From a virus (lineage: Duplodnaviria; Heunggongvirae; Uroviricota; Caudoviricetes), in the IMG/VR virus record IMGVR_UViG_2872185964_000009: a stretch of 40,340 nt of DNA; one strand, given 5' to 3'. A model generated the notes under the pieces. The model saw nothing but the letters and a program-made list of their open reading frames with translations, was not told the origin of the DNA and made no database searches. Below are positions 1-20,763 of the stretch, one piece after another. A program made the position numbers and the translations under genes. Numbering within the stretch: the stretch's first letter is position 1; each line of letters starts with the position of its first letter.

Positions 1-294
1 GTGGCGCACGTCTTCGGTGAACGCACTCTGGCCACACTGGAGCGTCTTCTGAGCCTGCTGTCGGCCTTTGAGGTCGTGGTATGGATGACGGATGGCTGGC
101 CGCTGTATGAATCACGCCTGAAGGGAAAGCTGCACGTTATCAGCAAGCGTTACACTCAGCGCATTGAGCGACATAATCTGAATCTGAGACAACATCTGGC
201 AAGGCTGGGACGGAAGTCACTGTCGTTCTCAAAATCGGTGGAGCTGCATGACAAGGTCATCGGGCATTATCTGAACATAAAACACTATCAGTAA
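1..294 (+). CDS. insB: IS1 InsB, C-terminal part (5' end outside window)
   Basis: 97-aa ORF about 85-90 percent identical to the InsB ORFs of the complete IS1 copies in this window. Confidence 0.85.
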
Positions 295-309
295 GTTGGA
301 GTCATTACC
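1..309 (+). mobile_element. IS1, partial (window starts inside the element; right end ...GTAAGTTGGAGTCATTACC at 309)
   Basis: Terminal sequence matches the IS1 end seen in the other copies; InsB-like ORF 1..294 is a divergent isoform compared with the other copies. Confidence 0.9.
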
Positions 310-14114: not shown

Positions 14115-14499
14115 ATTGGTGGAAAAGTATGACAGTAAAAATTTCTGGCGTGCTTAAAGATGGCACAGGAAAACCAGTACAGAACTGCACCATTGTGCTG
14201 AAGGCCAGACGAACCAGCAGCACGGTGGTGGTGAACACGGTGGCCTCTGAAAATCCGGATGAAGCCGGACGTTACAGCATGGATGTTGAGCATGGTCAGT
14301 ACAGCGTCACCCTGCTGGTTGAAGGTTTTCCGCCTTCACATGCCGGGACCATTACCGTCTATGAAGGTTCCAGACCAGGTACGCTGAATGATTTTCTCGG
14401 TGCCATGACGGAGGATGATGTCCGACCGGAGGCACTGCGCCGCTTTGAGCAGATGGTGGAAGAGGTGTCACGTAACGCCTCCGCGGTTGCACAGAATAC

Positions 14500-15480
14500 G
14501 GCAGCCGCGAAAAAATCAGCCAGCGATGCCAGTGCATCAGCCAGCGAGGCGGCAACTCATGCAACCGATGCTGCAGCCTCAGCACGTGCCGCCAGCACGT
14601 CAGCCGGACAGGCCGCGTCGTCGGCTCAGTCAGCGTCTTCCAGCGCAGGAACGGCATCAACAAAGGCCACTGAAGCATTAAAAAGTGCTGCCGCTGCAGA
14701 GTCCTCAAAAAGCGCGGCGGCTACCAGTGCCGGTGCGGCGAAAACGTCAGAAACGAATGCGGCAGCGTCACAACAATCAGCAGCCACTTCTGCATCCACC
14801 GCGACCACGAAAGCGTCAGAAGCAGCCACTTCAGCACGGGATGCGTCGGCTTCAAAAGAGGCGGCAAAATCATCAGAAACGAACGCAGCCTCGAGCGCCA
14901 GCAGCGCAGCTTCCTCGGCAACGGCGGCAGCAAATTCTGCGAAGGCGGCAAAAACGTCTGAGACAAACGCCAGGTCTTCTGAAACGGCAGCGGAACAGAG
15001 TGCCTCAGCTGCGGCAGGCTCAAAAACAGCGGCTGCGTCGTCTGCCAGTGCAGCGTCAACAAGTGCCGGGCAGGCCTCAGCCAGTGCCACCGCCGCCGGA
15101 AAATCGGCAGAAAGCTCCGCATCGTCTGCTTCAACAGCCACAACGAAGGCTGGCGAAGCCACTGAACAGGCCAGCGCAGCAGCGAGGTCTGCTTCCGCAG
15201 CGAAGACATCCGAAACGAACGCGAAAGCGTCGGAAACCAGCGCAGAATCCTCAAAAACGGCTGCCGCATCGTCCGCCAGTTCGGCGGCGTCATCGGCATC
15301 ATCGGCGTCTGCTTCAAAAGATGAGGCGACCAGACAAGCGTCAGCAGCGAAGAGCAGCGCCACGACGGCATCCACGAAGGCAACAGAGGCGGCAGGCAGT
15401 GCGACGGCAGCATCTCAGAGCAAAACTACTGCTGAATCCGCTGCGACCCGTGCGGAAGCTGCTGCTGATCGTGCTGAAGA
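14500..15480 (+). repeat. Ala/Ser/Thr-rich low-complexity shaft of Stf with recurring AAKTSETNA-type units
   Basis: GCN/TCN-dominated codons; motif KTSETNA occurs four times; also generates long spurious ORFs in other frames and on the opposite strand. Confidence 0.6.
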
Positions 15481-16010
15481 GATTGCCGGTGCAGTTGCGA
15501 TGGAAGACGCAAGCCTTACAACTAAAGGTGTTGTGAAACTTAGCAGTGCTGTTGATAGCACCAGTGAATCGCTGGCCGCAACGCCAAAAGCAGTTAAAGC
15601 AGCCAATGACAATGCGAATAGCAGGGTGCCATCTAACCGAAAAGTTAACGGAAAAGCATTGACTGCGGATATAACATTAACGCCGAAAGATATTGGTACT
15701 TTAAATTCAGTAACGATGTCTTTCTCTGGCGGGGCTGGGTGGTTCAAACTGGCTACGGTTACCATGCCACAAGCGAGTTCCATCGTTTACATCGCATTGA
15801 TTGGTGGCGCTGGTTACAACGTCGGTTCCCCACATCAGGCAGGCATTTCAGAACTGGTTCTACGAGCAGGTAATGGAAACCCCAAAGGAATTACCGGGCT
15901 TTGTGGAAGCGTACAGCCGTCGGATTAACGAATTTCGCCTGGATCAACACATCCGGCGATACATATGATATTTACGTTGAGATTGGCAATTATGCGGTAA
16001 TGACTCCAAC

Positions 16011-16388
16011 TTATTGATAGTGTTTTATGTTCAGATAATGCCCGATGACTTTGTCATGCAGCTCCACCGATTTTGAGAACGACAGCGACTTCCGTCCCAG
16101 CCGTGCCAGGTGCTGCCTCAGATTCAGGTTATGCCGCTCAATTCGCTGCGTATATCGCTTGCTGATTACGTGCAGCTTTCCCTTCAGGCGGGATTCATAC
16201 AGTGGCCAGCCATCCGTCATCCATATCACCACGTCAAAGGGTGACAGCAAGCTCATAAGACGCCCCAGCGTCGCCATAGTGCGTTCACCGAATACGTGCG
16301 CAACAACCGTCTTCCGGAGCCTGTCATACGCGTAAAACAGCCAGCGCTGGCGCGATTTAGCCCCGACGTATCCCCACTGTTCGTCCAT
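16011..16388 (-). CDS. insB: IS1 InsB reading frame
   Basis: 125-aa ORF identical to the InsB ORF of the IS1 at 24285. Confidence 0.9.
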
Positions 16389-16432
16389 TTCCGCGCAGAC
16401 GATGACGTCACTGCCCGGCTGTATGCGCGAGG

Positions 16433-16707
16433 TTACCGACTGCGGCCTGAGTTTTTTAAGTGACGTAAAATCGTGTTGAGGCTAACGCCCATAATGCGTG
16501 CAGTTGCCCGGCATCCAACGCCATTCATGGCCATATCAATAATTTTCTGGTGCGTACCGGGTTGAGAAGCGGTGTAAGTGAACTGCAGTTGCCATGTTTT
16601 ACGGCAGTGAGAGCAGAGATAGCGCTGATGTCCGGCAGTGCTTTTGCCGTTACGCACCACCCGTCAGTAGCTGAACAGGAGGGACAGCTGATAGAAACAG
16701 AAGCCAC
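16433..16707 (-). pseudogene. insA: IS1 InsA, frameshifted (C4 to C3 after codon 16)
   Basis: caccacccgtcag here versus caccaccccgtcag in the other copies. Confidence 0.85.
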
Positions 16708-18070
16708 TGGAGCACCTCAAAAACACCATCATACACTAAATCAGTAAGTTGGCAGCATCACCCAATTATGCGACGAGTGTAAATATCCATTGGGATTGTA
16801 CTGCAAATGCGTCAGTTTCTGTTTATACCTCGCCAACATATTCAGCGAGTAAGCCTTCCAGCGTTACCTATGGTGTTGTTTATACGATGTATAGCTCACA
16901 TCAGAAACCTACACCATCAGATATTGGAGCGCTGCCAACGACTGGAGGGACTATTTCAGGTCCGTTGTTTGTTACTGATGGGATCACCGGGCACTGAAGG
17001 GGAACGCCGATACCGCGACGAAACTTGCGGCAGCCCCAAAAATTAACGGTGTTAAGTTTGATGGCTCGGCGGATATTAACCTCACGCCGGAAAATATTGG
17101 TGCATTTGCCCGACGTTCGACGGGGCTTATGCGGATTCGGATGGAGCCGTTCCCTGGAATGCCGAATCAGGCGCTTACAATGTCACCCGCTCTGGCGACA
17201 GCTATATTCTGGTTAACTTCTATACCGGAGTCGGAAGTTGCCGGACCCTGCAGATGAAGGCGCATTACAGAAATGGTGGTCTGTTCTACCGTTCTTCAAG
17301 AGACGGTTATGGTTTTGAGGAAGGCTGGGCAGAAGTTTATACCTCGAAAAATCTTCCACCAGAAAGCTACCCAGTCGGCGCACCAATCCCGTGGCCATCA
17401 GATACCGTTCCGTCTGGTTATGCCCTGATGCAGGGGCAGACTTTTGACAAATCTGCTTACCCGAAACTTGCAGCCGCTTATCCGTCAGGCGTGATCCCTG
17501 ATATGCGTGGCTGGACGATTAAGGGCAAACCTGCCAGTGGTCGGGCCGTATTGTCTCAGGAACAGGACGGCATTAAATCGCACACCCACAGCGCCAGCGC
17601 ATCCAGTACGGATTTGGGGACGAAAACCACATCGTCGTTTGATTACGGCACTAAATCCACGAATAACACCGGGGCGCATACGCACAGTCTGAGTGGCTCT
17701 ACGGGGTCTGCCGGTGTTCATACTCATGGTAATGGTATTCGTTGGCCAGGAGGCGGCGGTTCTGCGTTAGCATTTTATGATGGCGGTGGGTTCACTTATG
17801 TCCAGAATTCACAGTATCAAGTAAGCCCGGGACTTCTTCCCGTAGATCGTATTATCAACGTATTCAGACACAGTCAGCAGGTGCTCATACCCACTCGCTG
17901 TCTGGTACTGCAGCAAGTTCTGGCGCACATGCACATACTGTAGGTATTGGTGCGCATACGCACTCCGTTGCGATTGGTTCACATGGACACACCATCACCG
18001 TTAACGCTGCGGGTAACGCGGAAAACACCGTCAAAAACATCGCATTTAACTATATTGTGAGGCTTGCATA

Positions 18071-18652: not shown

Positions 18653-19198
18653 TTATGTGTGAGATGAATTATAAATAATTTCAGAGTGAAATTTGGTAAT
18701 GAATGTGGAGTCATCAGGAATGTCATGCAGTACCAATGCATGAGCTCCTATTTTTACATTATTCCCTATATGCACTTTGCCACCAAGGATGGTGGCGTTA
18801 CAGCCAATGGTTACATTATTTCCTATGACAATATCCATATCATTAAATTCACCGCGAAGTCCAATAGTTACCCCAGGCTTAATTGAACAATTTTCACCTA
18901 TTGTAACTTTGTGACCGATAACAACGCCATTGAGATAAGATATGTCGAACCCTTTACCAATATTTACAGTTAAGGGAACGGTTACATTGTATTTATCAAG
19001 AATGAAGCGTTCTATTTTTCCTGCAATCTTTCGCCGGTATCCGCCTTTATCAAAAAGATATTTTGCTATGCGCCACCAAAATAAATAACGTGATCTTCTG
19101 TGTTTTATTGCGCGAACAATTGCTTTTCGCCAGGAGAAAGGGCGTTTACAACCTATTACTTCATAGTGTATGCACTTTTTAAGTTCACTAATATTCAT
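18653..19198 (-). CDS. Hexapeptide-repeat (left-handed beta-helix) acyltransferase, CysE/WcaB-like; prophage moron
   Basis: 181-aa ORF with repeated [LIV]-G-x-x-x-x hexads (..VIGHKVTIGENCSIKPGVTIGL..IVIGNNVTIGCNATILGGKVHIGNNVKIGAHALVL..); markedly AT-rich; convergent with tfa. Confidence 0.8.
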   Translation of the reverse strand: MNISELKKCIHYEVIGCKRPFSWRKAIVRAIKHRRSRYLFWWRIAKYLFDKGGYRRKIAGKIERFILDKYNVTVPLTVNIGKGFDISYLNGVVIGHKVTIGENCSIKPGVTIGLRGEFNDMDIVIGNNVTIGCNATILGGKVHIGNNVKIGAHALVLHDIPDDSTFITKFHSEIIYNSSHT

Positions 19199-19358
19199 AT
19201 ATCTATTATTCAGTAAAGATAATTCTGTAACTTATTATTATATTAGGTTTAATGGGCTTTTTCTACAGTTTACTGTATTACTCTCACGCCGGAGCAATAG
19301 GCACAGGCCGGACGACAAATTGCATCAGGAGTTTCTCGCCAGAAGGTGGTGATCATCT

Positions 19359-19484
19359 ATGATGTTGGCGTATCGACTTTGTATAAGAAGTTTCCGGTCG
19401 GAGATGAATGAAACCGTAGCACGTCGTATGCAAGAACGTGCCACGGCTGGCTGGCGAACTTTCGATAGTGCGAGTATTGAATGA
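19359..19484 (+). CDS. Hypothetical 41-aa ORF (MMLAYRLCIRSFRSEMNETVARRMQERATAGWRTFDSASIE) with strong RBS; may not be a real gene
   Basis: AAGGTGGTGA 7 nt upstream of ATG; no recognisable homology. Confidence 0.2.
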   Translation: MMLAYRLCIRSFRSEMNETVARRMQERATAGWRTFDSASIE

Positions 19485-19514
19485 TTTCCAGCTGTTACCG
19501 ATTTTACGTGTTAA

Positions 19515-19763
19515 TTAGTGAAAAAACCACTCGTCAGCAGACTTCCAGGTATCTTTCAGAGTCTCCTGAACAAAAGTTTTAGCTGAATCTTTATCGGCGG
19601 TGCGCGTAACAGAAAGGCCATCGTTGCTGGTGGCTTTTACGATCACCTCTACATCGTCATAACGTTTACTGATGCGTCGGGTTAATTCTTCCTTTAACGC
19701 ATCCACAGCACCGTTTGGCATTTTAGTGATTTTTTCTTTAGCGATACAGATCTCAACACGCAT
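19515..19763 (-). CDS. DinI-like protein (prophage-encoded)
   Basis: [64 protein letters not shown] resembles DinI; RBS AGGAGGG retained; a LexA box lies on the other side of the IS1. Confidence 0.8.
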
Positions 19764-19831
19764 AACACCCTCCTGTGGTGATGCTGCCAACTTACTGATT
19801 TAGTGTATGATGGTGTTTTTGAGGTGCTCCA

Positions 19832-20107
19832 GTGGCTTCTGTTTCTATCAGCTGTCCCTCCTGTTCAGCTACTGACGGGGTGGTGCGTAACGGCAAAAGC
19901 ACTGCCGGACATCAGCGCTATCTCTGCTCTCACTGCCGTAAAACATGGCAACTGCAGTTCACTTACACCGCTTCTCAACCCGGTACGCACCAGAAAATTA
20001 TTGATATGGCCATGAATGGCGTTGGATGCCGGGCAACTGCACGCATTATGGGCGTTAGCCTCAACACGATTTTACGTCACTTAAAAAACTCAGGCCGCAG
20101 TCGGTAA
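19832..20107 (+). CDS. insA: IS1 InsA
   Basis: 91-aa ORF, GTG start, identical to the InsA of the other intact copies. Confidence 0.95.
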
Positions 20108-20151
20108 CCTCGCGCATACAGCCGGGCAGTGACGTCATCGTCTGCGCGGAA

Positions 20152-20529
20152 ATGGACGAACAGTGGGGATACGTCGGGGCTAAATCGCGCCAGCGCTGGC
20201 TGTTTTACGCGTATGACAGGCTCCGGAAGACGGTTGTTGCGCACGTATTCGGTGAACGCACTATGGCGACGCAGGGGCGTCTTATGAGCTTGCTGTCACC
20301 CTTTGACGTGGTGATATGGATGACGGATGGCTGGCCACTGTATGAATCCCGCCTGAAGGGAAAGCTGCACGTAATCAGCAAGCGATATACGCAGCGAATT
20401 GAGCGGCATAACCTGAATCTGAGGCAGCACCTGGCACGGCTGGGACGGAAGTCGCTGTCGTTCTCAAAATCGGTGGAGCTGCATGACAAAGTCATCGGGC
20501 ATTATCTGAACATAAAACACTATCAATAA
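20152..20529 (+). CDS. insB: IS1 InsB reading frame (expressed as InsAB' by -1 frameshift)
   Basis: 125-aa ORF; carries the MATQGRL variant shared with the IS1 at 34499. Confidence 0.95.
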
Positions 20530-20553
20530 GTTGGAGTCATTACCCCCTCCTGT

Positions 20554-20573
20554 AACTGTAGTTATGTACAGGT
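20554..20573 (-). promoter_or_regulatory. LexA (SOS) box, CTGT-N8-ACAG
   Basis: aaCTGTagttatgtACAGgt; palindromic CTGT/ACAG arms with AT-rich 8-bp centre, 2 bp from the IS1 end. Confidence 0.65.
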
Positions 20574-20574
20574 G

Positions 20575-20607
20575 TTATTTTTATCTGTATGGATAACCAG
20601 TGTCAAT
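20575..20607 (-). promoter_or_regulatory. Sigma70-like promoter (TTGACA, 17-18 bp spacer, TAAAAAT) oriented toward the dinI-like gene but now separated from it by IS1
   Basis: Minus strand reads TTGACActggttatccatacagaTAAAAATaacaCCTGTACATAACTACAGtt. Confidence 0.45.
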
Positions 20608-20763
20608 TCCTGATATTGTTTATGGGGCATCAATGGGCATGTATGGGACACTTTTTATCGGCGAAATTCGTCGAAGTTCGTCGACATGGTAAACGAATCA
20701 TCTATCCAACCCTTGAAAAACGGCGCTCCTGGACGATCTTCGTCGATTTTTAAAAATGTTGCG

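Follow-up and report, generated by a model that had tools for sequence, protein, structure and literature searches.

An IS1 element between the predicted SOS promoter and the coding sequence of a prophage dinI-like gene

Prophage homologues of the DNA-damage-inducible gene dinI have been described in several phages, and here we analyse such a gene with an IS1 element directly upstream of it, in a 40,340-nucleotide stretch of viral DNA (IMG/VR record IMGVR_UViG_2872185964_000009; this whole stretch is called the window and all positions refer to it). The closest described system is VT1-Sakai (Sp15; AP000400), a prophage integrated at yehV, which carries the dinI-like gene H0001. The promoter of H0001 is also assigned to a further gene, H0002 (YkgJ-like). 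Similar in layout are the LexA-controlled dinI–antirepressor–irsA operons of the Salmonella prophages Gifsy-1 to Gifsy-3 (PMC3121763; PMC8072944), where a prophage dinI homologue also lies directly behind a LexA-box promoter. Nalidixic acid raises the expression of these homologues 4.6- to 23-fold, and they are described as LexA-regulated (PMC8072944). PMC3121763 examined whether LexA controls the Gifsy locus; in that study, Gifsy-1 or Gifsy-3 lacking its dinI homologue was not significantly altered in induction. The chromosomal DinI of E. coli K-12 (1GHH) is a full-length homologue of the protein encoded in the window, including the C-terminal acidic helix; the window gene is a prophage paralogue, and the aligned proteins are well diverged.

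Concerning IS1 itself, the classical polar insertions in the gal and lac leaders placed the element between a promoter and its structural gene, an arrangement in which Rho-dependent polarity is expected; in classical genetics IS1 is polar in either orientation. IS1 can also form hybrid promoters, as at bla-TEM, acrEF and afaA in E. coli ST131, where an inverted repeat with an outward -35 lies directly upstream of the gene (Prentki 1986, as cited in PMC8764528 and PMC9330008). Activation of the neighbour occurs only where a good, correctly placed -10 is available (PMC8764528).

The locus in the window combines elements of these systems. It shares the att site and the yehV remnant with VT1-Sakai, and the -35, -10, LexA box, Shine-Dalgarno sequence and ATG of the dinI-like gene are base-identical in the two (98.5% identity over 398 nt); VT1-Sakai differs in having no IS1 and in the presence of H0002. 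The Gifsy genes are experimentally DNA-damage inducible. An antirepressor/irsA-type gene follows dinI in Gifsy, whereas none was found downstream of dinI in the window (region checked by open reading frames, ORFs, and by Pfam); as nothing comparable comes after dinI, the IS1 should affect the dinI-like gene only and not prophage induction. In contrast to the gal and lac insertions, the target is a prophage SOS gene and there is a copy of the Shine-Dalgarno sequence on each side of the element. In contrast to the hybrid promoters, no usable -10 is present at the required spacing, and loss of expression is expected, as seen for osmB in ST131. We read the locus as a simple IS1 transposition into the 5' leader of a LexA-repressed prophage dinI-like gene, which would be strongly down-regulated as a result, and we give this reading a probability of about 0.7.

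The IS1 element and its target site

The coordinates of all features of the locus are presented in Table 1. The element at 19777..20544 (plus strand) is a complete IS1 of exactly 768 bp with the ends GGTGATGCTGCCAAC... and ...GTTGGAGTCATTACC; 18 of the 23 positions of the terminal inverted repeats match. A -1 shift modelled at the A6C site yields an intact InsAB' fusion of 232 amino acids. The identity is 97–98% to annotated IS1A/IS1SD copies in E. coli and 100% to the copy at 34499..35266 of the same window. Based on NCBIfam, InsA contains the IS1/IS1595 zinc-binding domain above the cutoff, while the model of the whole IS1 transposase (NF033558) falls just under its cutoff (92.8 bits vs 100) because the 91-amino-acid InsA part alone was scanned; the Pfam domains InsA, HTH_Tnp_IS1 and DDE_Tnp_IS1 are found on the corresponding ORFs in two related assemblies (one of them CP026866.1). 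Length, inverted repeats, frameshift architecture and a 9-bp duplication are all those of the IS1 family, in which the duplication is occasionally 8 bp.

The 9-bp duplication (CCCTCCTGT) is perfect and the copies diverge from the tenth base; by our own arithmetic the chance of a nine-of-nine match is 4^-9. At their empty sites, VT1-Sakai and E. coli S1-IND-01-B have the 9-mer as a single copy. On the minus strand it is the Shine-Dalgarno sequence of the dinI-like gene, whose ATG (19763..19761, minus strand) lies 13 nt away from the IS1 terminus. The insertion duplicated the 9 bp that hold the Shine-Dalgarno sequence and left the gene with its ribosome-binding site and start codon. A first-pass annotation of the window had described a 768-bp IS1 with a perfect 9-bp duplication corresponding to this Shine-Dalgarno sequence, 13 bp from the ATG to the end of the element; length, inverted repeats, the comparison of the repeats and the sequence of the leader all agree with that description.

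The empty site was rebuilt by in silico deletion of 19777..20553 and used as a 401-nt query. Loci without the insertion were hit in 1,334 E. coli genomes (coverage at least 80%; the best at 99.8% identity over 401 nt), and 67 phage records matched as well. Over a stretch that starts upstream of the -35 and runs well into the ORF, the query is base-identical to VT1-Sakai and to E. coli S1-IND-01-B; the sole difference in that alignment is the length of a C-run located 30 nt upstream of the promoter. At the same positions, the VT1-Sakai record has the annotation 'putative promoter of H0001 and H0002 genes', and 'DNA-damage-inducible protein I' comes next. The classic SOS-regulated dinI locus that the first-pass annotation had expected from the reconstruction is thus what the deletion and alignment returned. 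The pre-insertion order was TTGACA, LexA box 1, TAAAAAT, LexA box 2, Shine-Dalgarno, ATG and the dinI-like gene.

The junctions were searched in other genomes with 40-mers across the two ends of the insertion (AGTAAGTTGGCAGCATCACCACAGGAGGGTGTTATGCGTG and ACACCTGTACATAACTACAGTTACAGGAGGGGGTAATGACTCC). Both are exact (40–50-mers) in CP049281, which is Shigella boydii 600657 of clade 2 (PMC7545283), and in CP026762; these are 99.8–99.9% identical to the window over 6.2 kb. CP026866 has the IS1–dinI junction only and the other IS1 end adjoins ruvA (ruvA–ruvB; CP026866.1 1331..3000), which suggests IS1–IS1 recombination (inversion or translocation) using the dinI-side copy. Several sister assemblies carry the empty site, CP026807 being one example. 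The IS1-bearing arrangement is found in none of 5,426 complete E. coli genomes; near-matches in E. coli EC27 and ATCC 8739 proved to be unrelated arrangements. No matches were obtained in the GTDB species representatives, among which Shigella is presumably not separately represented. Judging from these matches, the window is assigned to a Shigella boydii-type chromosome, and several strains of one lineage have inherited the insertion.

The same comparison bears on assembly quality. Compared with the sister assemblies, the differences of the window are almost all 1-nt deletions in G/C homopolymers (Table 1), and base-level quality is therefore imperfect, which is the one point in favour of an assembly artefact in which IS1 was misplaced by a repeat-collapsing assembler. 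Against this, the perfect 9-bp duplication fits a single-copy empty site, and two strains sequenced independently share both junctions exactly, while a third shares one of them; an artefact is effectively refuted. The junctions and the 9-bp repeat are unaffected by the homopolymer errors. The sister assemblies have an intact BtsS of 561 amino acids, and the frameshift near 21364 in the window is a 1-nt homopolymer deletion. On the strength of this comparison, the apparent frameshifts in btsS and in the tail-fibre genes, as well as the two IS1 copies of 767 bp, are probably assembly errors and not pseudogenisation; the btsR frameshift, which lies outside the compared stretch, is probably of the same kind.

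Promoter, operators and product of the dinI-like gene

Upstream of the promoter-proximal IS1 end, the consensus scan reports an SOS promoter with 10 of 12 consensus matches, which is the only strong promoter-like site of the minus strand in 19450..20750. Two LexA-type boxes accompany it: box 1 fills the spacer between -35 and -10, and box 2 lies between the -10 and the Shine-Dalgarno sequence. The first-pass annotation had proposed a sigma-70 promoter and a LexA box beyond the IS1, pointing at the gene, and both the scan and the VT1-Sakai annotation agree with this. It had also placed the box 2 bp from the end of IS1; the box is there, and the 2 bp are the distance to the end of the 9-mer, whereas the IS1 terminus is 11 bp away.

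Box 2 is the only CTGT-N8-ACAG in the window. The count of the bare motif is not significant (one seen vs 0.51 expected by chance over the whole window), and what gives the box weight is where it lies and how homologues conserve it, together with analogy. The VT1-Sakai record annotates a 'putative SOS box' (LexA protein) on a sequence identical to box 2. In seven phage homologues (identity as low as about 75%), the CTGT/ACAG half-sites do not vary, in contrast to the 8-nt spacer; CCAG takes the place of ACAG in a Klebsiella phage sequence. The -35 TTGACA is found in all aligned phage homologues but one (PhiR12_2: TTGATA), and the -10 is unchanged in the seven homologues. At the position of box 1, the phages mEp460, 1720a-02, PhiR12_2 and Stx2c have a perfect CTGT-N8-ACAG (CTGTTTATCCATACAG). 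Based on these alignments, the dinI-like cassette is predicted to have tandem LexA-type operators, that is, two boxes and not one. Position, half-site conservation and analogy with the Gifsy and VT1-Sakai genes make LexA control of the promoter a putative one.

The homology to otherwise unrelated phage genomes starts exactly at the -35 hexamer (query position 71–72), which indicates that promoter, operators and gene move together as one moron-like unit. The pre-insertion cassette is such a unit in a lambdoid prophage, at the end next to yehV; it lies 160 bp inside the prophage boundary and is the first module within it.

The dinI-like ORF is intact, as the first-pass annotation had it. It contains the Pfam domain DinI (PF06183) with 67.7 bits vs a cutoff of 24.2, covering profile positions 1–63 of 63, and the protein aligns with E. 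coli DinI (1GHH) over its full length (E=1.2e-11, residues 1–81 to 1–79). The alignment takes in the C-terminal acidic helix motif (segment of E. coli DinI 1GHH: EILQETWESADDWF). Judged by profile and alignment, the product is classed as a bona fide DinI-family protein; RecA-filament binding and modulation of co-protease activity are putative family properties in this case. An exact-protein look-up finds the same DinI-like protein encoded in many E. coli and Shigella assemblies.

Table 1. Positions of the features at and around the IS1 insertion in the 40,340-nt window.
Feature	Position	Strand	Remarks
dinI-like coding sequence	19515..19763	-	82 codons and stop, intact
9-bp duplication, gene-proximal copy	19768..19776		CCCTCCTGT; minus strand ACAGGAGGG, Shine-Dalgarno of the dinI-like gene
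IRL	19777..19799		IS1 end next to the dinI-like gene
Outward -35-like TTGGCA	19785..19790	-	Inside IRL, 8 bp from the terminus; candidate hybrid-promoter half, judged non-productive
insA	19832..20107	+	InsA of 91 amino acids, intact
A6C slippery/frameshift site	20083..20089		Joins the insA and insB' frames by a -1 shift
End of the insB' frame	20529
IRR	20522..20544		IS1 end next to the promoter
Mini-ORF MTPTY*	20540..20523	-	5 codons; ATG inside IRR, 5 nt downstream of the orphaned Shine-Dalgarno
9-bp duplication, promoter-proximal copy	20545..20553		Orphaned Shine-Dalgarno
LexA box 2	20556..20571	-	CTGTACATAACTACAG; between -10 and Shine-Dalgarno; 20-mer 20554..20573
-10	20577..20583	-	TAAAAA (17-nt spacer) or AAAAAT (18-nt spacer)
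LexA box 1	20585..20600	-	CTGGTTATCCATACAG; CTGG-N8-ACAG (plus strand CTGT-N8-CCAG); fills the -35/-10 spacer
-35 TTGACA	20601..20606	-	Consensus promoter scan
Truncated yehV (mlrA) remnant	20764..20832	-	Exact match to AP000400 features
VT1-Sakai-type att core	20765..20784		Prophage boundary
btsS (yehU)	21039..22669	+	Host gene flanking the prophage
Single-base homopolymer deletions in the window	16663, 16992, 17126, 17832, 18375, 20638, 21364, 22666		Relative to two independent Shigella assemblies

Transcription across the inserted element

The insertion leaves 777 bp between the dinI-like gene and its promoter and operators. Upon DNA damage, the SOS promoter would fire into IRR; its orientation confirms the first-pass statement that it reads into the IS1 antisense to insB and insA. 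Translation of this transcript would be limited to the mini-ORF of five codons; the antisense IS1 RNA after it, some 750 nt long and containing a stretch in which C exceeds G, would go untranslated. The C/G ratio reaches 1.6–1.7 in 80-nt windows from about 20265 to 20385 (starts 20384 and 20344), and no further ORF with a Shine-Dalgarno sequence was found on the antisense IS1 path beyond the mini-ORF. Untranslated C-rich RNA is a classical Rho substrate. Such RNA would be of the kind that Rho terminates, with little transcription expected to reach dinI, and the remaining dinI-like expression would be read-through that is still LexA-dependent. Two published observations point the same way: IS1 was reported to contain a terminator (Hubner et al. 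1987, as cited in PMC12095673), and an IS1 upstream of osmB lowered the transcript about 4-fold (PMC8764528).

Several points weigh against strong down-regulation. No intrinsic terminator was found on the antisense path and no terminator-like hairpin on either strand in 19450..20750, and read-through could be substantial; Rho termination is predicted only from the base composition and the absence of translation. IRR is reported to have inward promoter activity, which would give low LexA-independent transcription toward dinI. Also, the ORF is undecayed and the protein is identical between strains with and without the IS1, which is compatible either with a recent insertion or with continued usefulness of the gene.

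Some of these points would equally suit a functionally mild insertion, in which transcription from the SOS promoter crosses the whole IS1 and DNA damage still induces the dinI-like gene to a useful extent, with a leader 777 nt longer. The promoter is strong on paper (perfect TTGACA at -35), the undamaged ORF retains its own Shine-Dalgarno sequence and ATG, no terminator-like hairpin is present, and in ST131 an IS1 upstream of ugd left the transcript unchanged (PMC8764528). The long untranslated RNA with its C>G stretch, the terminator reported inside IS1 and the polarity of IS1 in either orientation speak against it. Moreover, InsA binds both inverted repeats (PMC12428005) and, given the many IS1 copies, may act as a roadblock. 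Weighing both sides, we consider a mild effect unlikely.

An activating effect of the element, with an outward or hybrid promoter at the IS1 end driving constitutive, LexA-independent dinI-like expression, would be in line with the hybrid promoters formed by the outward -35 of the IS1 inverted repeat. A candidate half is present in IRL (TTGGCA). The hexamers at 16–18 nt spacing from it are GTGTTA, TGTTAT and GTTATG, the best of which has 4 of 6 matches, short of a hybrid-promoter -10. At 17-nt spacing, the candidate is TGTTAT (19767..19762; 4/6 matches), which has no A at position 2 (-11) and overlaps the ATG; transcripts would consequently begin within the ORF, without Shine-Dalgarno sequence or start codon. 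The TTGGCA also lies within the InsA-binding IRL (PMC12428005) and may be occupied. The consensus scan of 19450..20750 reports no minus-strand promoter besides the original SOS site and none in or near IRL; a relaxed scan adds one poor minus-strand site 280 nt inside the IS1. Activation of the gene by the IS1 end is therefore judged improbable, and no credible LexA-independent promoter that could feed the dinI-like gene was found in the scanned region. It follows that residual expression should be read-through and SOS-dependent.

The first-pass annotation had offered the alternatives 'silenced or uncoupled from LexA'. The scans argue for strong down-regulation, as in our preferred reading, and against uncoupling, for which a LexA-independent promoter is missing; the consequence for dinI-like expression is predicted from the sequence features described above.

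The captured SOS promoter could in principle have a further role, producing an SOS-inducible antisense RNA against the IS1 genes insB and insA and coupling IS1 transposition to DNA damage in the Shigella lineage. If this were true, the targets of the RNA could be IS1 transposase mRNAs (in trans) or the activity of IRR (in cis); action in trans is conceivable because there are many near-identical IS1 copies (five in the 40-kb window, 99.7–100% identical). We regard this reading as very improbable.

Most likely the insertion reflects neutral decay, in a prophage that another IS1 had already crippled. This copy (15996..16762, duplication CAATTATGC) splits the prophage tail-fibre gene into an N-terminal ORF (14129..15928) and a collar-domain part (about 16770..18070), so the prophage is defective regardless of the dinI insertion. 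IS1, the prophage DinI paralogue, the SOS promoter annotated in VT1-Sakai and, from classical work, this kind of insertion between promoter and gene are known already. New is this documented instance, which probably represents routine, neutral decay of a defective prophage driven by insertion sequences. It provides a clean natural example, with matched empty-site strains, of how accessory prophage genes are cut off from their regulators as insertion sequences expand in Shigella. It is also a possible natural test case for IS1 polarity in antisense orientation and for the part of a prophage DinI paralogue in the SOS response. Its importance is modest and no current view is challenged.

Neighbouring genes and other insertion sequences in the window

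Downstream of dinI there is a 36-amino-acid helix-turn-helix remnant of a DNA invertase and, on the other strand, a low-GC hexapeptide acetyltransferase. The latter gene (18653..19411; hexapeptide repeat, serine/sugar O-acetyltransferase-like) adjoins the invertase remnant, with the tail-fibre assembly gene on one side and dinI on the other. In E. coli ATCC 8739, a lambda-like prophage carries this acetyltransferase/invertase-remnant module in truncated form beside an IS1. Neither the Rfam nor the tRNA scan of the window gave matches.

The window is saturated with insertion sequences and contains five full IS1 copies, a divergent partial IS1 and an IS2 nested in an IS3-family element. Two of the five copies are located on a Shine-Dalgarno sequence with IRL facing the gene, those of the dinI-like gene and of the IS3-family orfA. 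The latter copy (25115..25881) has a 9-bp duplication, CAGAAGGAG (25882..25899 region), which is the Shine-Dalgarno sequence of orfA (ATG 25897), with IRL toward the gene. The same geometry is seen in 0 of 79 distinct IS1 IRL junctions from other genomes, with a background of 0.84% at random positions; the test does flag both cases in the window. A general preference of IS1 for Shine-Dalgarno sequences is rejected on these junctions, and the local two of five is taken as a post-hoc coincidence (Fisher p ~0.003, own arithmetic).

Concerning the remaining elements, the IS1 copies at 24285..25052 and 34499..35266 are full and have no target-site duplication, which suggests IS1-mediated deletions or rearrangements; the sequence left of the former resembles a truncated neighbour gene. 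The partial IS1 at the window edge (1..309) is 90% identical to the other copies and is either a diverged iso-IS1 or an older copy. The IS3-family element (25897..28400), which we take to be IS600-like, is interrupted by an IS2 on the minus strand (TnpA 27576..27941, TnpB 26713..27615).

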